A stretch of 64,000 nt of DNA from an uncultured Enterobacteriaceae bacterium (GTDB lineage Bacteria > Myxococcota_A > UBA9042): contig CAYHHL010000001.1 of NCBI GenBank assembly GCA_964356325.1, forward strand, positions 57,246 through 121,245. The letters are read 5' to 3'. Made by a program: the position numbers and the translations under genes. Of the stretch, positions 1 through 54,927 are shown one piece after another. Positions within the stretch are counted from its first letter, which is position 1. Each line of letters starts with the position of its first letter. The notes below the pieces were generated by a model. It ran no database searches. It saw nothing but the letters and a program-made list of their open reading frames with translations, and was not told where the DNA came from.

Positions 1-96
1 CGTGACGGCGAACGAGCCAGGCCTCGCACCCGCGTTCGTTGCGAGCAGCGTCAACGGCAGGATCACGGCCAGCAGCAGGTCGGCGCGCGGGCTCAC
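1..96 (-). CDS. Partial CDS giving the N-terminal ~32 aa of a secreted or membrane protein (VSPRADLLLAVILPLTLLATNAGA...). It continues past the window start.
   Basis: On the minus strand, GGAGG (103-107 on the plus strand) lies 6 nt upstream of a GTG at 96..94. That GTG overlaps the TGA of the upstream amidohydrolase gene in a GTGA arrangement. The N-terminus is hydrophobic and signal-like. Confidence 0.3.
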   Translation of the reverse strand, partial: MSPRADLLLAVILPLTLLATNAGARPGSFAVT

Positions 97-7028: not shown

Positions 7029-10375
<3,347 letters not shown>

Positions 10376-45123: not shown

Positions 45124-46095
45124 TCAGAAATGCCAGCCGAACATCAGGCGGGGCTCGAACCGGAACGTCGTTTCGGGCGTAGTCAGCTTGGAGGCGATGT
45201 CCTTGTCGTTGTTGTAGATCCACTTGTCGTAGCTGGCCTGAACGAAGCGGAGGTCGACGCCCATCGCGAACACGCCCTCGTCGTCGAAGCGGTACTCGGT
45301 CGAAAGGCCGAACGGAATCGCGGTGCCGGTCCAGGCCTTGCCCGTCGCTTCGGACTGGAACACGGTCTCGTAGTAGTACAACAGGTCGAAGAAGCCGTAG
45401 CCGCCGTAAAGCTTCACATCCACAGGCAAATCGTCGCGGGCGAACCGGAGCGGGTGCAGGCCGAGCAGGACCGCGGCGGTGCCGGCGCCCGCGTTGTCGG
45501 CCTTGGCGCCGAAACTGCCGTGCCAGCTGAAGTCGGCGGCGAGCGACACGAAGCCCTTGATGTTGTAGCCGATCTGGATGGCGGCTGCCGGGCCCTTGCC
45601 GCGGTTGGTCGTGATCGCCTTGTCGTATTCAGCCGGCGCACTCTGGTGCAATGCCGCCAGGCCGCCGGCGTTTTCCGGCTCGGGGATGACCGGGCCGTCC
45701 TTGCCGCCCGCCGTCGCATAGCCGAGGTTCAGGTTCATGAAGAACCCTTCCCACAGCGCGTGCTTGCGCTTGGGCTTGACCGGCTTGGGCTCCTCGATCG
45801 CCGGACCGCCGGGCGCTTCAGGCTTCGGGCCGGGCGCGTCCAACTTCGGGCTTGGAACAGGCAATTCCTCCCTCGGCGGCGCGGGCGGCGCGGGCGCAGG
45901 TTGAATCGCTGGCGCGGGTTCGGGCTTTGGCGGCTTCGCGGCAGGAGGACGGGCCGCGGGCGTGTCTTCCGGTGCCGTGACGGGCGCGGGAACCGGCTGC
46001 GGCGCAGGCTTCTTCTTCTTGGCCGCCTGGGCCACACCTGGACTGACCGAGGCCACCGCGAGGGCGAGCAGCGCCATGGCGAGCTTAGTTCGCAT
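45124..46095 (-). CDS. Outer-membrane beta-barrel protein with a Pro/Ala-rich linker.
   Basis: It has a signal peptide and a long PAPxP linker. Alternating amphipathic strands end in C-terminal ...MFGWHF. Confidence 0.55.
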   Translation of the reverse strand: MRTKLAMALLALAVASVSPGVAQAAKKKKPAPQPVPAPVTAPEDTPAARPPAAKPPKPEPAPAIQPAPAPPAPPREELPVPSPKLDAPGPKPEAPGGPAIEEPKPVKPKRKHALWEGFFMNLNLGYATAGGKDGPVIPEPENAGGLAALHQSAPAEYDKAITTNRGKGPAAAIQIGYNIKGFVSLAADFSWHGSFGAKADNAGAGTAAVLLGLHPLRFARDDLPVDVKLYGGYGFFDLLYYYETVFQSEATGKAWTGTAIPFGLSTEYRFDDEGVFAMGVDLRFVQASYDKWIYNNDKDIASKLTTPETTFRFEPRLMFGWHF

Positions 46096-46189
46096 CGTAA
46101 CCCCGATCGCCGCCATGGTTTACGGGAGCGGCAGCAACGAATTATCGCCTAGCGATCTGCTAACTAACGCAGCGATCTGCTAGTAAACG

Positions 46190-46811: not shown

Positions 46812-47384
46812 TTACGACTGCACGTCGGCCGCAGCTTTCTGACTGCCCGTGAGGCTGAGATGCGCCTGGCTCTGCACCGGTTGACCGATTGCCCCCGGCC
46901 CTGGGCGCGAACCCAGCGAAATCAGGGCATGCGCCTGGCCTCGCGCCGGGGCCACGTGCGCCGAGCTCAGCGGAGCGAGACCCGGCGCCAGGAACTTGTC
47001 CATCGTCAGGCCTTCGATCTGGCGCATGACGAAACCGTTCAGAACGGCCATCGGGTCGCGCAAATGGCACTGCGGTTCCCGGTCGCAATTGGTGTCGTGC
47101 TCCTGGCAGGCGACCACCGCCAATTGTTCCTCGAAAGGCCGAATCACGTCCAGGAAGCGAAGTTTCTCCAGTGGCCGCGCGAGCTTGTAACCTCCGCCCG
47201 AACCCTTCGCGGCCTCGAGCACGCCTGCGCGCTTGAGGCCTTGCAGCACCTTGGCCAACACCTCAGGCGGAATCGACGCCGCGACAGCCAGGTCGGCCAC
47301 CGAAGCGAGTGCGGCTGGCGGTCTGCGGGCCAGTTCTTGCACCGCCAGCAACGCGTATTCGGATTTCCGGTTCAACTTGAACAT
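46812..47384 (-). CDS. Rrf2-family transcriptional regulator (IscR/NsrR-like), with three clustered Cys.
   Basis: MFKLNRKSEYALLAVQEL is a wHTH. The cluster CQEHDTNCDREPQC places the Cys ligands at IscR-like positions. Confidence 0.75.
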   Translation of the reverse strand: MFKLNRKSEYALLAVQELARRPPAALASVADLAVAASIPPEVLAKVLQGLKRAGVLEAAKGSGGGYKLARPLEKLRFLDVIRPFEEQLAVVACQEHDTNCDREPQCHLRDPMAVLNGFVMRQIEGLTMDKFLAPGLAPLSSAHVAPARGQAHALISLGSRPGPGAIGQPVQSQAHLSLTGSQKAAADVQS

Positions 47385-47574
47385 GCGGCAGCTCCGGGTG
47401 TCGACTGGCGTGCACCTCCGTCCTGGGCCGACGCTTCGGGTGAGGCGCGGCGTTTGGAGCAGATTGCCGCCACCGTAGTGCCGGCCGAACCCGCTGGCAA
47501 GGCGTGGGCAACCTTCCACCAAGAACCTCTGAAGTTCCGAGGCAGTTCAAAATCCCCTGGCCGATTGCAACGGC

Positions 47575-47674: not shown

Positions 47675-47890
47675 ATGACATTGACGGAGCTCCAGCGTAT
47701 CCGCCGCGAGCGGGCTGAACGCATTGTTCTTGAAGATGAATTCTACTGCCGCCCACGCAGGCGCCGACTGAGCATAGAACGATGTCTGGAGGATTACATG
47801 AATGCCAACGCTTTCAGCGACAAACGGAGCGCCTGTTGGCGATGCCCACAAGGCTGCGGCAACAGACAAGAGTTTGCCGAGGCGAAATAG
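47675..47890 (+). CDS. Small Cys-containing protein of 71 aa, function unknown.
   Basis: GGTGAGGTG lies 7 nt upstream of the ATG. The sequence carries C-x10-C...C-x2-C-x3-C, the promoter sits upstream and a terminator sits downstream. Confidence 0.35.
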   Translation: MTLTELQRIRRERAERIVLEDEFYCRPRRRRLSIERCLEDYMNANAFSDKRSACWRCPQGCGNRQEFAEAK

Positions 47891-47950
47891 ATAGATGAGC
47901 GCGAGAGAGAGGGAAAGAGAGCGAGACAAGGGCCTGAAGAGACGAGTGAA

Positions 47951-48010
47951 TGCAAAAACGACCGCCCCCGGCGCACGCCTACGAATCGCGCGCCGGGGCG
48001 GTCGTTTCGC
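47951..48010 (-). terminator. Rho-independent terminator for the FG-GAP gene on the minus strand, possibly bidirectional.
   Basis: A 16-bp GC stem CGACCGCCCCCGGCGC/GCGCCGGGGCGGTCG surrounds a 13-nt loop. The stem is followed on the minus strand by TTTTTGCA. A GA-rich tract sits adjacent at 47895-47935. Confidence 0.55.
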
Positions 48011-48025
48011 TCCAAGTTCAGGCAT

Positions 48026-50077
48026 CTACCAGCGCAGGACCGGCCGCACCAGCCACGCCTTGCCCGCCACGGCCACCACGACCGGCGCCTGGCCGGACAG
48101 CGGCCCTTTCGCGAGCCAGGTGCGCGTACAAGCGCCGTCCTCTGCACAGGTTTGCGGGCCTGCCCACAGCCCTTGCGCAGCCGCCGACAGTTCGATGGTC
48201 ACCGCCTTGCCGTCGGGCTGACCGTCGGTGCCGAAGCTGCGCGCCGTCACCGTTACCTGCCCGCCCGCCTTCACGTGGCGCGCCGACAGCTCGACCAGGG
48301 GCGGTTCTTCGACCAGCACGGAAGTGTCGGCCTCGACCTTGACTATGCGATCGTAGCCGCTCGGCCAGCGCACCGTCAGGGCCTGCGGTACCTCGCCGTC
48401 GGGCAGGGCGAACACGATTTCCGGCAGTTCTCCCGTATGTGCAGGCGCAATCCCCGTCATCGGCTGCAGCCGCGTGCCCAGGTTGGTTTGCAGCGCCAGC
48501 ACCGCGCCCAACCCCTGTCGATTGCTCAGCCTGCCGCGCAACCGCACCTTCAGCCAGTGGCCGCCGTGCTTGATTTCGTTGCGCATCAGCAGCGGTTGCA
48601 CGCTCTCGCCGCCCAGCAACAGGTCCTGATCGCCGTCGCCGTCCAGATCCGCCGTCGCCACCGCCCGCCCCAGTTGCTTGGCTGGGATGCCAAACTGCGC
48701 GCTCAGGTCGGCGAACGTGCCATTACCCTGATTCCTGAACAAGACCGGGCGCATGCCGCCATCGTCGGCCAGCAGGAACGCGCCCCAGTCGTAGCCGTGC
48801 GTCACCAGCATGTCCAGGCGCCCGTCGAAGTCGAAGTCCAGCGGGCGCACCGTCCAACTGACCATGGTCTGCCCCGTTTCGCTCAGGGGCCGCGCGATGC
48901 CGGCCTGCACGCCCTCGCTGCGGTAGGTGCCGTCCGGATTCTGCAGCAGCAGTTGCGTCGCCGAACTCGCGTTGTTCAACAGTTGCGCCTCGTTCGCCTT
49001 GCCGATGTCCACGCCGCCCATGCGCAGATCGCGAAAACCGATGCCGGACAGCACCAGGTCCAGCCGCCCGTCGCCATCGAAGTCCGCCTGCGCGCCGCCC
49101 ATCGGTGAACTTTCCGCCATACCTTCGGGCAGGAACGCAGGGGCCAGCGTCAGGCGCTCGTACTTGCCGGCCGCGGTCGCGTGCAGGTAGGCGTTGCCAC
49201 TTTGCGGATCGCAGCCCTCGACCATCGTCAGCAGGTCGGGCCGGCGGTCGCCATCGACGTCGACGGGCAACACGTTCCAAAGCGTCGCGTTCTGGTCCAC
49301 GCCCAGGCTGGGCCCCTGCGAAGCGAAGTGACCGTCGCCCTGGTTCACGAACGCCAGGAGCCGGCTCTGCGGACCACAGGAAAACCGCGTCACCAGCAGG
49401 TCTTGCAGCCCATCGGCGTCGATGTCGGCAACCACCAGGCCCTGCAGCATCTGCTTGACCGGATCGACCAACCCACGCGCCACGGCTTCGTCCTGCCACG
49501 AGCCATCGGTCTGGCGCACCAGCAGGTGCAGGAGCGCGCCCGAGACCGCGATGGCCAGCTTGCCGTTTCCATCGATGTCGATCGCGGCGAGTGTCGTGAT
49601 CCCGCGCTGTTCGCCCTGTTGCAGCACCGTCGTGAACGCCCACTGCCAAGGCCCGGTGGCGAGACCGACGTAGACGCGACTGACTCCGTCCGCCAGCACG
49701 ATGTCCAACAACCCGTCGCCATCGAGATCCGCAAACAATCCGGCACTGTCGCGCGGCGTCGACTTGTTCTTCACCCCGGCGTCGGTTTCGAGCAGGGGCA
49801 GCACGTTGGCCAGTGTCTTGAACTGTCCCGTCGCGGTCAGCGGCGCGGGCGCAACCGAGTCCGCGGCGACGGCGTCCGCCTTGCTGGGGGCAATATCCTG
49901 TGTCGCATCCGTGGGTTGTGGCACGACGTCGGCGCTGTCGGCCGCGTTCGCGCCATCGTGGGCTGGGGCGGCGTCGAGCGGCTGCGTGCAGGCGTGCGAC
50001 TGCTTGACGTGTACGGGCGGCAACGGCGAGCAGGCGCCCAGCCACGCGATCCCCAGACTGGCAACAACCCTGCGCAT
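48026..50077 (-). CDS. CRTAC1-family lipoprotein with FG-GAP/VCBS repeats and an ASPIC/UnbV-like C-terminus.
   Basis: Seven D-x-D-G-D-G-x-x-D repeats are present, such as DLDGDGLLDIVLADG and DFDGDGRLDLVLSG. The signal MRRVVASLGIAWLGAC is a lipobox. Its TGATG start overlaps the stop of the upstream small ORF. Confidence 0.8.
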   Translation of the reverse strand: MRRVVASLGIAWLGACSPLPPVHVKQSHACTQPLDAAPAHDGANAADSADVVPQPTDATQDIAPSKADAVAADSVAPAPLTATGQFKTLANVLPLLETDAGVKNKSTPRDSAGLFADLDGDGLLDIVLADGVSRVYVGLATGPWQWAFTTVLQQGEQRGITTLAAIDIDGNGKLAIAVSGALLHLLVRQTDGSWQDEAVARGLVDPVKQMLQGLVVADIDADGLQDLLVTRFSCGPQSRLLAFVNQGDGHFASQGPSLGVDQNATLWNVLPVDVDGDRRPDLLTMVEGCDPQSGNAYLHATAAGKYERLTLAPAFLPEGMAESSPMGGAQADFDGDGRLDLVLSGIGFRDLRMGGVDIGKANEAQLLNNASSATQLLLQNPDGTYRSEGVQAGIARPLSETGQTMVSWTVRPLDFDFDGRLDMLVTHGYDWGAFLLADDGGMRPVLFRNQGNGTFADLSAQFGIPAKQLGRAVATADLDGDGDQDLLLGGESVQPLLMRNEIKHGGHWLKVRLRGRLSNRQGLGAVLALQTNLGTRLQPMTGIAPAHTGELPEIVFALPDGEVPQALTVRWPSGYDRIVKVEADTSVLVEEPPLVELSARHVKAGGQVTVTARSFGTDGQPDGKAVTIELSAAAQGLWAGPQTCAEDGACTRTWLAKGPLSGQAPVVVAVAGKAWLVRPVLRW

Positions 50078-50346
50078 CAGGCCAGGGTACGCGACCGGCG
50101 CCGCTGCAGCCACAGCAAGCCGACGCCCACCGCCGCAAGACCGCCGACCGCCGGCAGCACCACGTCCAGCAGGCCGGGCACGAACCCCGGTTCCCAACTG
50201 GTCTTTTCGACCATGTCGCCGAAATCGTCCTTCACGGTCTCGACCTTCATGACTTTGGTCAGCATCCAGTACGGCCGGCTGGTCGTCGCCCACCACCCCA
50301 CCACGCCGAGCGCGAGAACGAAGCACACGATCGCAAGTTTTTTCAT
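50077..50346 (-). CDS. Small membrane protein of 89 aa with two TM segments.
   Basis: GGAGAA lies upstream of an ATG at 50346. The TM helices are MKKLAIVCFVLALGVVGWW and LPAVGGLAAVGVGLLWL. Confidence 0.5.
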   Translation of the reverse strand: MKKLAIVCFVLALGVVGWWATTSRPYWMLTKVMKVETVKDDFGDMVEKTSWEPGFVPGLLDVVLPAVGGLAAVGVGLLWLQRRRSRTLA

Positions 50347-50386
50347 GGTGTTCTCCGAACCGGACAGGTGGTGATCTCTGCGCGTC

Positions 50387-51022
50387 CTAGCGAGCGGTGG
50401 CATACAGCGTGGCGTCGACATCGATGACCTCGCCCACCTTGCTGCCGACGAGGCCCGCCTTGCCCTTGATGTTGTAGTCCTTGAGCGAGACCTTGAACTT
50501 GGTCGTCACCTTGAGCGCGCCCGACGCCGTGAGGTAGCTGATCTGTACGGGAAAGCTCAGCTTCTTGGCCACGCCGTTCAACGTGAAGCTGCCGTGCGCC
50601 GTGCCCTCCGCCGTGCCCTTGTCGCCCTCGGCCTTGGCGCTGCGGATGTCGACCTTGTCGATGTCGAACGAGACGTTGGGGTTGACCTTGGTGTTCAGCC
50701 AATCCGGGCCCTGCAGGTGGCCGTCGCGGATCGGGTTGCCGGTCTGCATCTTGGCCACGGGCACGGTGATCTGCCCGGACGTGGTTTCTGGCTTGGTGGC
50801 GTCTGCGACCGTGAAACCGCCGGAGATGCCCTTGGCTGTGCCGCGGATGCGCTCGGCGGGGGCATCCGACGCGAACTTGAACTCGCTCTTCTCGGCATTG
50901 ACCGCGAACGTCAGCTTGCCGGTCTTGCCGACGAACGGCGTGTCGGCCCAGGCGGGCGCGGCAATCGAGGTCAGGCCGGCGACGAAGGCGAGGCTGCGCA
51001 GGTAGGTACGGGTCGTGAACAT
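50387..51022 (-). CDS. YceI-family periplasmic protein (polyisoprenoid-binding fold).
   Basis: AGGAG lies 7 nt upstream of the ATG and a signal peptide follows. The YceI-like core reads NPIRDGHLQGPDWLNTKVNPNVSF. Confidence 0.75.
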   Translation of the reverse strand: MFTTRTYLRSLAFVAGLTSIAAPAWADTPFVGKTGKLTFAVNAEKSEFKFASDAPAERIRGTAKGISGGFTVADATKPETTSGQITVPVAKMQTGNPIRDGHLQGPDWLNTKVNPNVSFDIDKVDIRSAKAEGDKGTAEGTAHGSFTLNGVAKKLSFPVQISYLTASGALKVTTKFKVSLKDYNIKGKAGLVGSKVGEVIDVDATLYATAR

Positions 51023-51058
51023 GGCGAAACTCCTGAGGCTAATGTGGGCCAATCCTGT

Positions 51059-52252
51059 CTAGAAGAACAGGTGCAACTGTACCGTGTACTGGGCCGCGGT
51101 GTAGTCGATTGTGCGTACGTAGCGGTATTCCGGGCGTAATTCCACGAACGGAATCGGCATGAACTGAACGCCGGCCACCAACGCGTCAGTCTGAGCGCGT
51201 TTGTCGAGCTGGCGGGCGATGCTCCGTTCGATCCGGCCTTCCAGCGTCAACCACTCGCGGAATGGGTAGGCCGCGATCAGCGTGCCGGTGAAGGTGCGTC
51301 GCCTTGCCAGGTCGGTGCCGGCGCTCGAATGGCTGAATTCGCCAATCACCGAGCCCCAGTAGCTCTTGCCGATGCCCAGGAATACGTCCTCCATGCGGAA
51401 GTCGCCGGCACCGAGCACCGAGCCGCCGAGCAAGCCGTTGACCTGGAAGTCCTCGAGTTGATGCGACAGAGTCAGGCGACCGGACCAGCCGAGCGCGTCG
51501 TCCTTGATGAAGGCGTTACCTACTGAATCCGCAAGATTACGTGGACGAAATGCCGAAATCTCGGCGCTGAGCCAGTGCGTGCCTTCGAAGCCGATCTCCG
51601 CGCCCAGCTCGTTCCAGTAGGGCGCGAGCAACGGCTGCTTGGGCGCCATCGCATTGCTGCGACTCAGGATCGTATGATCGTCGTGGCGCAGTCCCACCGA
51701 GGGCTGCAAAATTCCCGCGCGAACATAGGGCCAACGAATGTCCGGCGCCCAACGCAGCCACGCATCCCAGTGGGTCTGGCCCTGGTAGTGGAAGCGCTGC
51801 TCCGTCAGGTGTTCGCCATACAAGCCGGCGACGTTGAGCTGGGCCTGGGCCGTCACGCTCGGTACCGGCGTGATCGCGATGCCGGGCGAAAGCTGCATCG
51901 GAATCAGCACATGGTCGGGCAGGGCGACCTTGCCGTCCGGTTGGGTGAGGTCGGGCGACTTGCGGGCGAGTTGCAGGCGGGTGTCCGAACCGACCGTGAT
52001 CTTGCCGTCCCAGAAGGTGTTGCTCTCCAACTCGTGCACGGCCTTGAGCCCCAGTTGGTCCCACGTCACGGCGCCCACCGTGTTCATCGAGTACCAGCCG
52101 AGATCGGTGCGCAGCCCGGAACCTTGTGGATTGACGTGGCAATTGGAGCAGCGCGAGCCCGCGGACAAGCTGAACCGGGGCAGCGCGCTCGCCGGCAACG
52201 CCAGGATGCACGACGCCAGAAGTGTAAGCGCCGCGATGGTTTGGCGCCTCAT
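51059..52252 (-). CDS. Cyc2-like fused monoheme cytochrome c / outer-membrane porin.
   Basis: The signal peptide is followed by a single CxxCH (SRCSNCHVNP) about 15 aa after the cleavage site. About 370 aa of alternating beta-strand-like sequence ends in ...QLHLFF. Its start is ATGA-coupled to the Rieske gene. Confidence 0.6.
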   Translation of the reverse strand: MRRQTIAALTLLASCILALPASALPRFSLSAGSRCSNCHVNPQGSGLRTDLGWYSMNTVGAVTWDQLGLKAVHELESNTFWDGKITVGSDTRLQLARKSPDLTQPDGKVALPDHVLIPMQLSPGIAITPVPSVTAQAQLNVAGLYGEHLTEQRFHYQGQTHWDAWLRWAPDIRWPYVRAGILQPSVGLRHDDHTILSRSNAMAPKQPLLAPYWNELGAEIGFEGTHWLSAEISAFRPRNLADSVGNAFIKDDALGWSGRLTLSHQLEDFQVNGLLGGSVLGAGDFRMEDVFLGIGKSYWGSVIGEFSHSSAGTDLARRRTFTGTLIAAYPFREWLTLEGRIERSIARQLDKRAQTDALVAGVQFMPIPFVELRPEYRYVRTIDYTAAQYTVQLHLFF

Positions 52253-52737
52253 GTCTGCACCGACCCCTTGCCCGTCGCCGCGTCGAACGTGACGGCGTAG
52301 GCCTTGAGAGGTTTGTTTTTGGGCGCGGGGCCGTGCTTGACCGAACCGTCCGCGCCGTATTCCGAGAAGTGGCAACCACACACGAGCACGTTCGCGGTCA
52401 GGTCCCACGAGCCTACGCCGCCGTCCAGCTCGGGCGCGAGGTTGCCGCAAGCCGGATCGTGGCTACACGTACTGCTCAACGCCACGATCTGTTTGTCGGA
52501 AACGCGGATGATCACGAACTTGGAGCCACCCGCTTCGGCGCCGACCATGCCGCCAGCCACCTTCAGCGGCGCGAATCTGGCTTGGGCGAGGTCGAATTCG
52601 AACAGCGCGGCGAATACCGGGCCTTGGTGGACTTCGGCGGTTTCGCAGCCCTGCAATGCGGGAGCGAGCGCGACGGCACAGCCCGCGGCACCAAGGCTGC
52701 ACAGGAACTGACGACGGGAAGGTTCGGTTCGGGTCAT
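52249..52737 (-). CDS. Tat-exported Rieske [2Fe-2S] protein.
   Basis: The twin-arginine motif is SRRQFL. The Rieske boxes are CSHDPAC and CGCHFSEY. Confidence 0.75.
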   Translation of the reverse strand: MTRTEPSRRQFLCSLGAAGCAVALAPALQGCETAEVHQGPVFAALFEFDLAQARFAPLKVAGGMVGAEAGGSKFVIIRVSDKQIVALSSTCSHDPACGNLAPELDGGVGSWDLTANVLVCGCHFSEYGADGSVKHGPAPKNKPLKAYAVTFDAATGKGSVQT

Positions 52738-52914
52738 GGCCTTTTCTGGTCGCCGCGACAGGCGGGCACGGCGAAGCTTTGCAGAAGGTTGCGGACGACA
52801 CAAGCCTTGGCGGTATTGGCAATCCGCGACGCAAAACCGCTGTCCGCACAGGGCTTGCCGCTCCGGGCGAGCGCGACTACGCTGCAAGCTCGGCAAAATC
52901 TCAAGGAGGTCCGC

Positions 52915-54927
52915 GTGCTCACCCTACGACTACTGCTCCGGAGTTGGCCCAGCAAATGCCTCGGAATTCTGGTCGCCTCCGCGTCCCTGCTCGCCGCCGT
53001 GCCCGGCCAAGCCGCGGTGCCGAACAGCCTGGCCGTGCAGGGCGCGTTCCAGGCGCAAAGCGGTGGCCCGGCGTCGGACGGTCAGTACGACGTCACCTTT
53101 CGCTTTTTCAAGGCCGAGCAATTCGGCGATCCGCTTTGGACCGAAGGCCCGGTGCAAATCACCGTGAAGAACGGTCTGTTCAGCTATGCACTGGGCACCA
53201 AGACGCCGATCGCGCCGACGACGTTGGCTGGCCTGCCGCAGGTCTGGCTGGGCGTCCAGATTGCCAGCGAGCCGGAAATGCAGCGCAAAGTCCTGCAGTC
53301 CGTGCCATTCACCCTGCGCGCCGGTCTCGCCGAGGGCCTGGACTGCTCGGGTTGCGTGCAGTTGGCGCAGTTGGCCCCAGATGTGCTGGCCGCGTTCGCC
53401 AAGACCGCGGACTTGTCCAAGGCCGCGGTCACCGGTAGTTACAGCGACTTGAAGAACACACCCGACTTGTCGCAATTCGCCAAGGTCAGCAGCCTCGCCA
53501 ATGTCGCCTTCACCGGCAACTGGGCGGATCTCTCCGGCAAACCCTCGTCGGTCAAGGTCGGCTCGGCGTGCGGCAGCGGTTTGGTCGTGGCGGGCATCGC
53601 GGCGGACGGCAGCCTGCAGTGCGTGGCCAACGGTTCGGTCTTGCCGATCGACGGCCTGGACACGATCTCGAACAATCTCCTGACCGTACACTTCGACGAG
53701 ACCGCGGCGGGCAAGGCCTTCCCGATTCCGGACAACGCGCCCAACGGCTTCAGCGACACCCTGGACTTCCCGGACGTCGGCCTGGCGCAGGCGGTCACGG
53801 TCAGCGTCGACTTGACAAATAGCGACTTGTCATCCATCAAGGTGATGCTGACCGACCCGAATGGCGGCACCTACGTTCTGTTCGACAAGGGCCAGAAAGG
53901 CATCGCGCTCAAGGGCTCTTGGCCCGCGCCCAACGCTACGTTGAGCGGCGACCTGGGCATTTGGATCGGCAAAAGCCTCGCTGGCAAATGGAAACTGAAC
54001 GTCACCGACACCGGCTTCCTGAACAACGGCGTCGACGGCCAGTTGAACGCGTGGTCGATCACCATCCGCACGGTTTCTTCGCAAAAGGTCGCTGCCAACG
54101 CGGGGTTCCAGTTCAAGAGCTACGCCAAGCACCCCGTGGTCTGCAACGCCAGCCAGTTGGGTTTCACCTACATCAGCACGACCGACAAGTCCCTGTACAT
54201 CTGCAATGGTACGGACTTCTACCCGCTCGCGTTGGCGGTGGTCGGCAGCCAGAACAGCCCTGGGCTCTCGTGCAAGGACATTCTCGCCAAGGTGCCAGGC
54301 TCCAAGGACGGCGCGTACTGGCTCAATCCCACGGGATCCGGCGCGTTCCAGACTTGGTGCGACATGACCACGGACGGCGGCGGCTGGACCTTGCTGGCCA
54401 AGGTCGACGGCGCCAAGAACACGTTTGCGTTCGACGCGGGGCTGTGGACCGACACCAACCTGCTCAATGCCGACAAGGTCGCGATGGATACGGCCGAGGC
54501 CAAGTACGCAAGCTTCTTTACCTTGCCGTTCACGCAGATGCGCGTCGGCATGGCTGTGGGGCCGACGACCAAGTACGTGGTGATCAACCAGAAGGCGGAT
54601 TCGCTGCGGGCGCTGATGCAGGGCGCCTACGTGGCCACAGGAGTGGGTCGCAACGCATGGAAGTCCTTGATCGGAGGCTCTTCCTTGCAGGCGAACTGCA
54701 ACCTCGAAGGCTTCAATCCGGACTGCGGCGGCCGCAAGGTGCGCATCGGCATCGTCACCAACCAGGAGGGCGACTGCAATTCCTGTGATTCCTACCTGGG
54801 CTTCGGTCACACCGGCCAGGGCGGTTGCGGCGGCGTCGGCGCGGGCTACACCGGCAACATGGCGAGTTGCACCGCGGACAACGGCGACCTGAACATCAAC
54901 AGCGTCGGCTACTTGTTCGCGCGCTGA
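52915..54927 (+). CDS. Secreted protein with a proprotein-convertase P-domain and a C-terminal fibrinogen-related domain.
   Basis: AAGGAGG lies 5 nt upstream of a GTG start and a signal peptide follows. The P-domain-like segment is VSVDLTNSDLSSIKVMLTDPNGGTYVLF...GKWKLNVTDTG...LNAWSITI. The fibrinogen-domain-like segment is CKDILAKVPGSKDGAYWLNPTGSGAFQTWCDMTTDGGGWTLLAKVDG. Confidence 0.65.
   Translation: MLTLRLLLRSWPSKCLGILVASASLLAAVPGQAAVPNSLAVQGAFQAQSGGPASDGQYDVTFRFFKAEQFGDPLWTEGPVQITVKNGLFSYALGTKTPIAPTTLAGLPQVWLGVQIASEPEMQRKVLQSVPFTLRAGLAEGLDCSGCVQLAQLAPDVLAAFAKTADLSKAAVTGSYSDLKNTPDLSQFAKVSSLANVAFTGNWADLSGKPSSVKVGSACGSGLVVAGIAADGSLQCVANGSVLPIDGLDTISNNLLTVHFDETAAGKAFPIPDNAPNGFSDTLDFPDVGLAQAVTVSVDLTNSDLSSIKVMLTDPNGGTYVLFDKGQKGIALKGSWPAPNATLSGDLGIWIGKSLAGKWKLNVTDTGFLNNGVDGQLNAWSITIRTVSSQKVAANAGFQFKSYAKHPVVCNASQLGFTYISTTDKSLYICNGTDFYPLALAVVGSQNSPGLSCKDILAKVPGSKDGAYWLNPTGSGAFQTWCDMTTDGGGWTLLAKVDGAKNTFAFDAGLWTDTNLLNADKVAMDTAEAKYASFFTLPFTQMRVGMAVGPTTKYVVINQKADSLRALMQGAYVATGVGRNAWKSLIGGSSLQANCNLEGFNPDCGGRKVRIGIVTNQEGDCNSCDSYLGFGHTGQGGCGGVGAGYTGNMASCTADNGDLNINSVGYLFAR

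Follow-up and report, generated by a model that had tools for sequence, protein, structure and literature searches.

A predicted heme-bearing outer membrane porin, distantly related to Cyc2, is encoded beside a Tat-Rieske protein in several phyla

Operon layout and accessory genes

In the 64,000-nucleotide stretch of DNA analyzed here (the window), gene calls agreed with the original prediction of five tightly coupled minus-strand genes at positions 48026 to 52737, encoding a Rieske protein, a cytochrome-porin, a YceI protein, a small transmembrane (TM) protein and an FG-GAP protein (Table 1). Both predicted overlaps were present: ATGA where the Rieske gene ends and the cytochrome-porin gene begins (...CAG ACA TGA), and TGATG where the TM gene ends and the FG-GAP gene begins. 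The remaining two junctions are gaps of ~36 and ~40 bp. The 4-bp ATGA overlap implies that the first two genes are co-translated. The strong terminator expected after the FG-GAP gene was recovered by folding as a hairpin of ~28 bp (minimum free energy of -48 kcal/mol; z = -5.14; 0 of 200 shuffles equally stable) that runs into UUUUU; its loop exceeds 8 nt, and it is hence invisible to a simple terminator scan. The FG-GAP gene and a 71-aa gene converge on the hairpin, which may therefore act bidirectionally. On its far side, the 71-aa gene is divergently paired with a gene for an Fe-S-type Rrf2 regulator, which is syntenic in Myxococcota.

Table 1. Genes, protein motifs and terminator of the operon (window coordinates)
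Feature	Residues	Coordinates	Strand	Remark
Rieske gene		52249-52737	-	162 aa
Twin-arginine motif SRRQFL, Rieske protein	7-12	52702-52719	-	sequence
Lipobox LQGC, Rieske protein	28-31	52645-52656	-	sequence
Cluster box CSHDPAC, Rieske protein	91-97	52447-52467	-	sequence
Cluster box CGCHFSEY, Rieske protein	120-127	52357-52380	-	sequence
Cytochrome-porin gene		51059-52252	-	397 aa
Signal peptide, Sec-type, cytochrome-porin	1-23		-	sequence; ...LPASA, then LPRF
ALPRFSLSAGSR-CSNCH, cytochrome-porin	23-39	52136-52186	-	heme motif CSNCH at aa 35-39
PMQ, cytochrome-porin	118-120	51893-51901	-	family-invariant
RHDDHT, cytochrome-porin	189-194	51671-51688	-	invariant columns (family RxDDHT)
ELRPEYR, cytochrome-porin	371-377	51122-51142	-	family-invariant
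QLHLFF, cytochrome-porin C terminus	392-397	51062-51079	-	invariant columns (family QxH)
YceI gene		50387-51022	-	211 aa
Small TM protein gene		50077-50346	-	89 aa
FG-GAP protein gene		48026-50077	-	683 aa
Intrinsic-terminator-like GC-rich hairpin (U run follows)		47947-48014	-	folding of 47945-48025

The last three genes differ in how widely they are retained. The YceI protein belongs to a secreted, lipocalin-type polyisoprenoid/lipid-binding family (PF04264; E = 1.1e-24) and, like YceI and TT1927b among the polyisoprenoid-binding periplasmic proteins, combines a clear match to this family with a signal peptide. In E. coli, yceI adjoins a cytochrome b561 gene; in contrast, the operon YceI sits after heme-porin and Rieske genes. 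A YceI gene follows the cytochrome-porin at 6/6 Myxococcota-type loci, and 22 of 49 metagenome loci (~45%) have a YceI-like ORF on the downstream side. The small TM protein matched no Pfam or NCBIfam family; it has two hydrophobic helices, a conserved loop motif (DFGD...K..W....PGLLD) and a basic C terminus (RRRSR). A gene of 89 to 105 aa occupies its position in the 5 Myxococcota-type loci reaching that far, and alignment with the orthologues from loci L003, L005 and L006 gave 19 invariant columns. The label of CRTAC1 FG-GAP lipoprotein given to the last product was partly backed: the FG-GAP_3 match (E = 1.7e-38) and a lipobox (LGAC, aa 13 to 16) stood, while UnbV_ASPIC scored 16.4 bits, under the cutoff of 23.4. 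Its membership in the unit did not hold, since the gene is present in L003, L004 and L006 but swapped for Toluene_X in GCA_041447075 and for a radical SAM gene in L005. By gene content, this FG-GAP/VCBS-repeat protein is an accessory, nonconserved operon member. The L005 locus also adjoins a TonB receptor and a FecCD-type iron ABC transporter, an arrangement seen at this locus only.

The cytochrome-porin and its relation to Cyc2

As predicted, the second gene encodes one CxxCH after the signal peptide (CSNCH, starting 11 residues past the predicted cleavage site) and ends in FF. Homologues numbered 143; nearly all come from metagenome assemblies or MAGs, and no cultured isolate could be linked to any of them. 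CxxCH was counted among the 120 homologues listed and was retained in 119, the sole exception being N-terminally truncated; this conservation is more than chance. Invariant positions near the heme motif include P25, G32, C35, C38, H39, G44 and R48. The AF2 model was a confident porin fold (pLDDT 89.3; pTM 0.83), in keeping with the expected barrel, with a small N-terminal domain of helices preceding 16 to 18 strands. Its best Foldseek matches in the PDB were 16-strand porins (E = 1e-10 to 1e-12 overall), including OprP (2o4v) and OprO (4rjw), each with E = 6e-10 and TMq of 0.55 to 0.58, and PorB (E = 8e-12). These are the same porins reported as structural matches of Cyc2 (PMC8406198, PMC10654088). 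Together, the sequence and model suggest an outer membrane pore protein with one covalently bound heme.

The architecture proposed for the protein was that of Cyc2, and in this respect the prediction was accurate: both are ~400 aa long, with a signal peptide, a single N-terminal CxxCH, an OprP/OprO/PorB-like barrel and an aromatic C-terminal residue, and both carry A-x-P-x-F with the Pro exactly 10 residues ahead of the first heme Cys. These likenesses would also be expected of a bona fide Cyc2 orthologue, that is, a lithotrophic Fe(II) oxidase of clusters 1 to 3. However, the motifs that define Cyc2 and serve as admission criteria for its tree, PxFAR[Q/K][T/Y] and PxL (PMC8406198), are missing from the cytochrome-porin, in which P-R-F-S-L-S-A and H-V-N-P-Q-G occupy the places of FAR[Q/K][T/Y] and PxL. 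HMMs of the Cyc2 subgroups scored it at 2 to 12 bits (noise), compared to 36 to 81 bits between the subgroups themselves, and BLASTP single linkage kept the two families separate. Cyc2 itself is the fused monoheme Fe(II) oxidase known from Acidithiobacillus ferrooxidans, Mariprofundus ferrooxydans PV-1 and Gallionellaceae, with Cyt572 of Leptospirillum as cluster 3.

The link between the families was visible by profile-profile comparison. Aligned with 91 Cyc2-motif proteins by hhalign, the cytochrome-porin family gave a probability of 97% (E = 1.2e-10) over 327 colinear columns, compared to E = 0.11 for the reversed control. A sister subfamily, F2, matched both the cytochrome-porin family (E = 5e-60) and Cyc2 (E = 2.9e-18), and its match to Cyc2 persisted after deletion of the CxxCH columns (E = 1.1e-13). 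A BLASTP match between L128 and P0253 (E = 2e-8 over 393 aa) also bridged the families. The claim of Cyc2 identity thus survives as full-length remote homology but not as membership in clusters 1 to 3.

The barrels also differ. Invariant M119, R189/D191/D192/H193/T194, E371 to R377 and Q392/H394 are found only in the cytochrome-porin family, whereas almost nothing in the Cyc2 barrel is conserved outside the cytochrome motif. These many invariant polar residues may indicate chemistry other than simple Fe2+ oxidation. In addition, genuine Cyc2-motif proteins were found separately in Myxococcales, Anaeromyxobacter, Kapabacteria and Ignavibacterium, which argues that the cytochrome-porin is a paralogous lineage. 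Given the missing motifs, the HMM scores and the differing barrel residues and conserved partner (below), we consider Cyc2 orthology distinctly unlikely. On profile evidence, the cytochrome-porin is instead a distant Cyc2 homologue in a separate, uncharacterized family, outside the Cyc2 family proper.

The Rieske protein and its recurrence beside the cytochrome-porin

The assignment of the first gene as a Tat-exported Rieske protein was confirmed by matches to PF00355 (E = 4.7e-12) and to the Tat signal model TIGR01409 (17.4; cutoff, 16.7). The protein is probably a lipoprotein anchored via Cys31. Among solved structures, its closest relatives are Rieske subunits of b6f/bc1 complexes (E ~2e-5), while matches to the PetC and Rieske_proteo models fell far under their cutoffs. 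Like bc1/b6f Rieske subunits and AioB of arsenite oxidase, it has a Tat signal and CxH...CxCH boxes. It also shares their additional pair of Cys residues and the Ser and Tyr that follow the second box, which together form the bc1/b6f-type high-potential signature. In contrast to these proteins, it is merely 162 aa long, has a post-Tat lipobox Cys in place of the retained TM anchor, and has neither cytochrome b nor AioA encoded nearby.

A neighborhood survey upheld the pairing of a Tat-Rieske protein, often with YceI, beside the cytochrome-porin as a conserved unit. Among assembly loci, the Rieske gene adjoins the cytochrome-porin gene in 9 of 10 (Myxococcota, Bacteroidota, Ignavibacteria and Latescibacter); among metagenome loci, 45 of the 49 evaluable have a Rieske gene on the same strand no more than 1.5 kb away (21 upstream, 24 downstream). 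The pairing recurs across phyla more than expected by chance, and its presence in Bacteroidota/Ignavibacteria and Latescibacter shows that the unit is not specific to myxobacteria. As a control, ~120 true Cyc2 loci were searched, and only 5 had any Rieske ORF: four code for bc-type subunits with a membrane anchor, and the other lacks an export signal. No adjacent Rieske gene was found at the two loci sampled from F2. Of the 61 unique Rieske partners, 58 have the RR motif, 45 the lipobox Cys, 59 CxH and 58 CxxH. The partners are heterogeneous, however: the bc-type extra (disulfide) Cys pair occurs in 38/58 and Tyr at H+4 in 10/58, and the L011 partner has both His ligands replaced. Because of this variety, a single conserved midpoint potential among the partners is unlikely.

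These data also bear on whether the protein is an ordinary diffusion porin, its heme structural or absent and its Rieske gene an unrelated neighbor. The barrel does resemble general and substrate-specific porins, and there is a weak BBP2 Pfam match (E = 0.003). However, the invariance of CxxCH and its flanking motif, the Rieske adjacency in two gene orders across several phyla, and the 4-bp translational coupling make this reading scarcely credible. Our literature search found no paper describing a unit of cytochrome-porin and Tat-Rieske protein. The new point, as read from gene neighborhoods, is the cytochrome-porin's Rieske partner, almost always encoded alongside it across several phyla.

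A candidate redox module at the outer membrane

On balance, we think it likely that the operon core encodes a two-protein heme-to-[2Fe-2S] redox module at the outer membrane. The cytochrome-porin would be a Sec-exported beta-barrel with heme c on CSNCH in its first ~50 mature residues. The Rieske protein would be exported folded by Tat and held by a lipid anchor at Cys31, its cluster acting in the periplasm as the porin heme's dedicated electron partner. Rusticyanin, a cupredoxin, serves Cyc2 as a partner, and the cytochrome Cyc1 has been proposed to do likewise; the Rieske protein may fill the same role here. A small redox-active solute would enter the pore and exchange electrons with the periplasm. 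Both the analogy with Cyc2 and the high-potential signature seen in the window's Rieske protein point to inward electron flow as the likeliest direction, a soluble reductant such as Fe2+ being oxidized. The YceI and two-TM proteins form part of the same unit in Myxococcota and may tie it to the inner membrane or to lipids/quinones; the operon itself encodes no inner membrane or quinone-linked component and lacks genes for cytochrome b, a quinol dehydrogenase, an oxidase and a soluble carrier. The complete extracellular-to-periplasm conduit originally suggested is something we infer, as is Fe(II) oxidation, which is put forward by analogy to Cyc2; Fe(II) as the physiological substrate is possible but doubtful.

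Electrons could instead run outward, from the quinol pool through the outer membrane Rieske protein and the porin heme to an extracellular or pore-entering acceptor (for example, Fe(III) chelates, Mn, humics or oxygen species), with YceI perhaps carrying quinol. Rieske centers in bc complexes are natural quinol oxidants, and the nearest solved relatives come from such complexes. YceI is present at all Myxococcota-type loci and ~45% of loci, and the hosts, judged by name, are mostly heterotrophs or facultative anaerobes and not known iron oxidizers. However, the operon encodes no cytochrome b or other Qo-site partner, we know of no precedent for a quinol shuttle across the periplasm, and the sequence carries no directional information. 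Moreover, a heme near +200 mV, as reported for the single heme of Cyc2 (PMC8406198), would reduce most extracellular acceptors poorly. We therefore regard outward flow as unlikely.

We give a similarly low probability to a role in iron or redox homeostasis and not energy conservation, such as surface oxidation of incoming Fe2+ (detoxification), reductive iron acquisition or sensing. Cyc2-type proteins are common in organisms that do not grow on iron (PMC8406198), and both the iron-uptake genes of L005 and the Rrf2 regulator would fit such a role. Nevertheless, those uptake genes neighbor a single locus, the Rrf2 gene pairs with the 71-aa gene past the terminator, and the mechanism overlaps with that of the redox module.

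The redox module, which we favor, differs from known systems in its parts. Compared to Cyc2, with Cyc1, rusticyanin or no partner, the cytochrome-porin family has a Tat-Rieske lipoprotein. An exported Rieske protein paired with a heme-porin suggests a novel type of gate for electrons in the outer membrane. Like MtrCAB, MtoAB and PioAB, the module pairs an outer membrane barrel with a redox protein on the periplasmic side, the two being encoded by adjacent genes and proposed to transfer electrons across the outer membrane. In those complexes, however, a 26-strand barrel sheathes a separate decaheme cytochrome (PMC8406198), whereas here a small predicted barrel (16 to 18 strands) carries its own fused heme and has a separate iron-sulfur protein as its partner.

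The five-gene operon and its surroundings

Five genes run head to tail on the minus strand from 48026 to 52737, and two of their junctions are overlaps: ATGA joins the Rieske stop codon to the cytochrome-porin start, and TGATG joins the stop of the small TM gene to the FG-GAP start. The remaining two are gaps of ~36 and ~40 bp. A simple consensus scan found no terminator 3' of the operon; direct folding of 47945-48025 gave a GC-rich hairpin (47947-48014; -48 kcal/mol; z = -5.1) followed by U5, so the strong terminator claimed after the last gene is real even though the scan had missed it. Gene calls, junctions, Pfam matches and the folded hairpin therefore confirm the operon of the original prediction, including its coordinates (see the table). 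Upstream of the Rieske gene, at 52771-52800, a segment (GGCTTGTGTC...TTCTGCAAAGCT) is also kept upstream of the 66%-identical orthologous operon in locus L003. Within it lies a small palindrome (GCAAAGCTTCGC, 52771-52782), and the segment could be a promoter or operator.

Genes of the redox operon and its neighbours, with positions in the window
Feature	Position	Strand	Details
330-aa secreted Pro/Ala/Lys-rich protein	45124-46116	minus	ends ...MFGWHF, like an outer-membrane beta-barrel signal
Rrf2-family regulator	46812-47399	minus	PF02082, E 2e-28; C-x6-C-x5-C Fe-S-type motif
71-aa basic Cys-rich ORF	47675-47890	plus	C25, C37, C54, C57, C61; ...SACWRCPQGC...
FG-GAP protein	48026-50077	minus	683 aa
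Small TM protein	50077-50346	minus	89 aa
YceI-like protein	50387-51022	minus	211 aa
Cytochrome-porin	51059-52252	minus	397 aa
Rieske protein	52249-52737	minus	162 aa
670-aa secreted protein	52915-54927	plus	proprotein-convertase P-domain; weak fibrinogen/COLFI-like C-terminal region

The third gene matches YceI (PF04264; 88 bits, cutoff 23.7; E = 1.1e-24), a family of lipid/polyisoprenoid-binding proteins. The small two-TM protein comes from a genuinely conserved gene and carries the loop motif DFGD..K..W....PGLLD, and a gene of 89 to 105 aa follows YceI in all five Myxococcota-type loci that reach so far. The last gene had been labeled a CRTAC1 FG-GAP lipoprotein. The FG-GAP part of that label is supported by FG-GAP_3 (131 bits; E = 1.7e-38), whereas the UnbV_ASPIC domain that would justify "CRTAC1" scored 16.4 bits against a cutoff of 23.4; among the orthologues, this match is marked as weak in loci L003 and L004 and carries no such mark in L006. 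Across Myxococcota-type loci, the fifth gene encodes an FG-GAP protein, a Toluene_X protein or a radical SAM protein. The proposed five-gene redox unit is best narrowed to a conserved Rieske and cytochrome-porin core, often with YceI, to which the FG-GAP gene is an accessory that is replaced in relatives.

Several neighbouring genes are also shared between loci. The 71-aa Cys-rich ORF, which matches no Pfam or NCBIfam family, shares 97% identity with the L003 counterpart and 72% with that of L006, against just 66% and about 42% for the neighbouring cytochrome-porins. It converges on the FG-GAP gene and forms a divergent pair with the Rrf2 gene, which is itself syntenic downstream of the operon in those Myxococcota-type loci read so far along, L005 excepted. 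The Rrf2 protein was considered as a regulator of the operon and downgraded: since its gene is placed past the terminator, facing the 71-aa gene, the latter is its more likely target. On the other side, the gene for the 670-aa P-domain protein diverges from the operon, and a similar gene is found in that place in L001, L003 and probably L004. The 330-aa secreted protein very weakly matches CglE, a protein of gliding motility, which would fit a Myxococcota origin.

The cytochrome-porin and its distance from Cyc2

The cytochrome-porin begins with a Sec-type signal peptide ending in ...PASA, which by inspection would be cleaved between MRRQTIAALTLLASCILALPASA and LPRF; homologues have the same h-region and A-x-A site. 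The mature protein starts LPRFSLSAGSR-CSNCH and ends ...QLHLFF, and CSNCH (aa 35-39) is its sole CxxCH. Searching 5.8 billion proteins returned 143 homologues from Myxococcales/Deltaproteobacteria, Bacteroidota, Ignavibacteria, Kapabacteria and Latescibacter metagenome-assembled genomes, the named ones all "hypothetical protein." The CxxCH is kept in 119 of the 120 homologues listed, and the remaining one is without its N-terminus; the single heme motif behind the signal peptide is thus conserved as anticipated. An exhaustive search of 1.84 billion representatives with the family profile yielded 155 clusters at E <= 1e-30, rising to 510 at E <= 1e-10 and to 1699 at E <= 1e-3. No curated family covers the protein in Pfam (a sub-threshold BBP2 porin match only) or NCBIfam, where no model matched even true Cyc2, and a PDB sequence search gave nothing meaningful. 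Unusually long family members contained no informative domain fusion; an apparent GH65 fusion in one relative (P0234) looks like an assembly chimera and was set aside. Elsewhere in the window, neither a second cytochrome of this type nor a Cyc2-motif protein was found.

In an alignment of 34 diverse members (32 to 67% identical to the window protein), the heme site has seven invariant residues (P25, G32, C35, C38, H39, G44 and R48). The barrel has polar invariants that are unusual for a porin (M119 in PMQ; R189, D191, D192, H193 and T194 in RxDDHT; E219; S278; R340; E371, R373, P374, E375, Y376 and R377 in ELRPEYR; Q392 and H394). Of these, M119, H193 and H394 are candidates for the sixth heme ligand. 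A confident AlphaFold2 model built from the family alignment (pLDDT 89.3; pTM 0.83) places a small helical domain at the N-terminus (about residues 25 to 73) and has the barrel begin at about residue 85. Foldseek matched this model to 261 PDB entries at E <= 1e-3, and almost all at the top of the list were porins. The best matches were 16-strand porins (PorB, E = 8e-12; Omp32; OmpU/OmpT), with OprP (2o4v; TMq 0.58) and OprO (4rjw; TMq 0.55) each at E = 6e-10; 18-strand Occ porins fit less well (TMq about 0.4), and the DSSP string of the model can be read as either 16 or 18 strands. Together, the model and its porin matches uphold the predicted beta-barrel, and the protein combines a barrel of outer-membrane type with a conserved attachment site for a c-type heme, fused to the periplasmic N-terminus of that barrel.

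This architecture led to the original identification with Cyc2, whose variant from PV-1 has been shown experimentally to oxidise Fe2+ (Em 208 mV; PMC8406198). In the definition of Keffer et al. (2021), Cyc2 is at least 365 aa long and has a signal peptide, a single CXXCH and, just upstream of the latter, the motif AXPXFAR[Q/K][T/Y], which is called unique to Cyc2 and was required for entry into their tree; the definition also includes PXL four residues past CXXCH and a 16-strand barrel like OprO/OprP (PMC8406198). The window protein has the signal peptide, the single N-terminal CxxCH, the length (397 aa) and, by AlphaFold2 and Foldseek, the OprO/OprP-like barrel. It also shares with Cyc2 the A-x-P-x-F pattern and an identical Pro-to-Cys spacing of 10 residues. 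Within A-L-P-R-F-S-L-S-A, however, only A, P and F agree with the published motif: S-L-S-A stands where Cyc2 has A-R-[QK]-[TY], and FAR[QK][TY] occurs in none of the family members. Past the heme site, the window protein has H-V-N-P-Q-G where Cyc2 has H-x(3-4)-P-x-L, so that Pro lies 2 past His and is followed by x-G instead of x-L; at the corresponding positions, 86 of 91 true Cyc2 proteins have P and 89 of 91 have L. Given these replacements, both defining Cyc2 motifs are absent.

The true Cyc2 set came from scanning one genome per species for back-translated PxFAR[QK][TY]xxxCxxCH, which gave at least 120 loci; 91 complete proteins were extracted from those retrieved. The loci include Mariprofundus and other Zetaproteobacteria, Sideroxydans, Gallionellaceae, Acidithiobacillus, Chlorobiaceae and Nitrospira defluvii, and also Myxococcales, Anaeromyxobacter, Kapabacteria and Ignavibacterium. 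Proteins with the true motif (PAFARKYGTSCLTCH, PSFARKYQTSCQTCH) occur at the Myxococcota loci L041, L077 and L102 (Myxococcales, Anaeromyxobacter and Myxococcota metagenome-assembled genomes), and Myxococcota therefore has both Cyc2 proper and the family. Both are present in Kapabacteria and Ignavibacteria as well (L023, L069 and L105).

We compared the family with Cyc2 by profile methods. HMMs that we derived from five subgroups of Cyc2 scored the family at a median of 2 to 12 bits versus 36 to 81 bits for other Cyc2 subgroups, and single linkage (BLASTP E < 1e-10 over more than 200 aa) placed 90 Cyc2 proteins in one component and the family with its sister subfamily F2 (LPRFAL..G..C..CH.NPTGG) in another. 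A second word-indexed search, with the alignment of the distant subfamily, returned only Ignavibacteria/Kapabacteria "hypothetical proteins" and no Cyc2. Aligning the family profile to that of Cyc2 with hhalign nevertheless revealed remote homology over 327 colinear columns (probability 97%; E = 1.2e-10; reversed control, E = 0.11). A 24-column heme region supplies most of this signal. We tested by deletion whether the likeness amounts to no more than CxxCH. For the family alone this is partly true, since deleting CxxCH leaves E = 0.006; for F2, which is close to the family (E = 5e-60), it is false, because the match to Cyc2 (E = 2.9e-18 over 336 columns) persists after the deletion (1.1e-13), as does that of the merged profile of the two subfamilies (1e-13; 6.5e-9 after deletion). 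For scale, matches between the Cyc2 subgroups themselves range from 1e-13 to 1e-28, and when only their barrels are compared, several pairs also fall short of significance. A BLASTP bridge connects L128 and P0253 (E = 2e-8 over 393 aa). Judged by these comparisons, the family and Fe2+-oxidising Cyc2 have a common ancestry, and the family is a separate, remote, full-length homologue that is Cyc2-like in design and descent. The identification with Cyc2 accordingly holds for architecture, heme site, barrel and kinship and fails for membership in clusters 1-3 as defined.

A near-obligate Rieske partner

The Rieske protein matches PF00355 (46.1 bits versus a cutoff of 20.3; E = 4.7e-12), with cluster boxes C91-S-H93 and C120-G-C122-H123 (CSHDPAC ... 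CGCHFSEY). Its twin-arginine sequence (SRRQFL) scores above the cutoff of the Tat-signal model TIGR01409, and a putative lipobox (LQG-C31) has an atypical Gln at -2. Among solved structures, its closest relatives are b6f and bc1 subunits (E about 2e-5), and it has the extra Cys pair typical of these Rieske proteins together with Ser at H+2 and Tyr at H+4. Across 61 unique partner Rieske proteins, we found a twin-arginine motif in 58, CxH in 59, CxxH in 58 and, within 45 residues, a lipobox-like [GAS]-C-[E/x], typically ...GC-E, in 45. The extra Cys pair is present in 38/58 partners, Ser at H+2 in 39/58 and Tyr at H+4 in 10/58.

We read the genes that surround ten further family members. All six Myxococcota-type loci have the order Rieske, cytochrome-porin, YceI; Bacteroidota/Ignavibacteria-type loci have Rieske genes directly before and/or after the cytochrome-porin, and in the Latescibacter locus (L011) the gene directly follows it. 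One locus, L008, has no Rieske gene, just an unrelated 110-aa gene upstream. We then scanned 80 metagenome loci bearing family relatives with HMMs from the partner proteins. In 45 of the 49 whose flanks were long enough, a Rieske gene lies on the same strand within 1.5 kb (21 upstream, often overlapping, and 24 downstream), and 22 of the 49 have a YceI-like ORF downstream; a few of the loci are duplicates of one another, and the picture is unchanged by them. As a control, only 5 among the ~120 true Cyc2 loci retrieved contain a Rieske ORF of any kind. Four of these encode membrane-anchored bc-complex subunits (CTHLGC...CPCHGS plus a TM helix) 0.2 to 2.5 kb from cyc2, the fifth is without an export signal, and no lipobox-type Rieske was found at any of the ~120 loci. 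An exported Rieske protein is therefore a near-obligate, translationally coupled partner of the cytochrome-porin. The original reading of these genes as a functional unit is right in this respect. The pairing is not particular to myxobacteria-like genomes, given the Bacteroidota, Ignavibacteria and Latescibacter loci.

Two further observations concern the relatives. At the Latescibacter locus, the "Rieske" partner (7263-7733) carries other residues in place of its two His ligands (CTFEGC ... CPCCGS), and from its sequence the site may be a four-Cys cluster or degenerate. For the sister subfamily F2, no Rieske neighbour was found in the two loci read (L132 and L133; Ignavibacteria/Kapabacteria type); in L132, the cytochrome-porin stop shares one base with a 159-aa Biotin_lipoyl-domain gene, and MlaD/MlaE/ABC genes adjoin the cytochrome-porin there, likewise in L007.

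A candidate route across the outer membrane

These data suggest a model in which heme and [2Fe-2S] cluster would exchange electrons at the periplasmic mouth of the barrel, with the Rieske protein held by a lipid anchor and a small solute inside the pore as the other redox partner. Electrons would move inward, from a Cyc2-like heme to the Rieske protein. In bc1 Rieske mutants, the disulfide Cys pair, Ser and Tyr were found to raise Em, and inward flow fits this high-potential signature in the window protein. Because the Rieske boxes are heterogeneous among partners, no single conserved midpoint potential is indicated. An outward, quinol-driven flow is a less likely alternative. Nothing encoded in the five-gene operon bridges the Rieske protein and the inner membrane; YceI and the two-TM protein are, speculatively, candidates for that link. 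By analogy with Cyc2, the substrate of the inward route could be Fe2+. The last strands of the barrel have an invariant charged ladder (E371/R373/E375/R377), one-sided by alternation, and neither it nor RxDDHT has a counterpart in Cyc2; the chemistry may therefore differ. A homeostatic role instead of energy conservation is another, also less likely, reading.

In full-text literature searches that combined Cyc2 or cytochrome-porin with Rieske, Myxococcota, Ignavibacteria or Kapabacteria, we found no description of the family or of the pairing, in agreement with the original impression that the unit was undescribed. The fused cytochrome-porin is a known kind of protein; it is the family, its barrel motifs and its Rieske (often also YceI) partner that appear undescribed. 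Cyc2 is the main genetic marker for inferring microbial iron oxidation from genomes and metagenomes. Motif screens for Cyc2 exclude the family, and HMMs that call Cyc2 probably miss it too, since the subgroup HMMs score it at noise level. Published Cyc2 trees leave out sequences without the FAR motif (PMC8406198). With 510 representative clusters at the intermediate threshold, the family is widespread and, if redox-active at the cell surface, would represent overlooked capacity for iron or extracellular electron transfer in common soil, sediment and freshwater lineages.

The heme-porin and putative Rieske lipoprotein form a compact two-gene candidate for a new trans-outer-membrane electron route, and a Rieske lipoprotein as periplasmic partner of an outer-membrane cytochrome would be a new wiring principle, no earlier example having been found in the literature. 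We tentatively raise the broader possibility, itself rather unlikely, that a heme-porin with an obligate Tat-exported, lipid-anchored periplasmic Rieske protein, often plus YceI, constitutes an unrecognised class of outer-membrane redox machine and a new route of Fe(II) oxidation or extracellular electron exchange for Myxococcota, Ignavibacteria/Bacteroidota and Latescibacterota, probably missed by FeGenie Cyc2 HMMs and motif screens. The partner role in such a machine would fall to a Rieske protein, often with YceI, rather than to a cytochrome or a cupredoxin.
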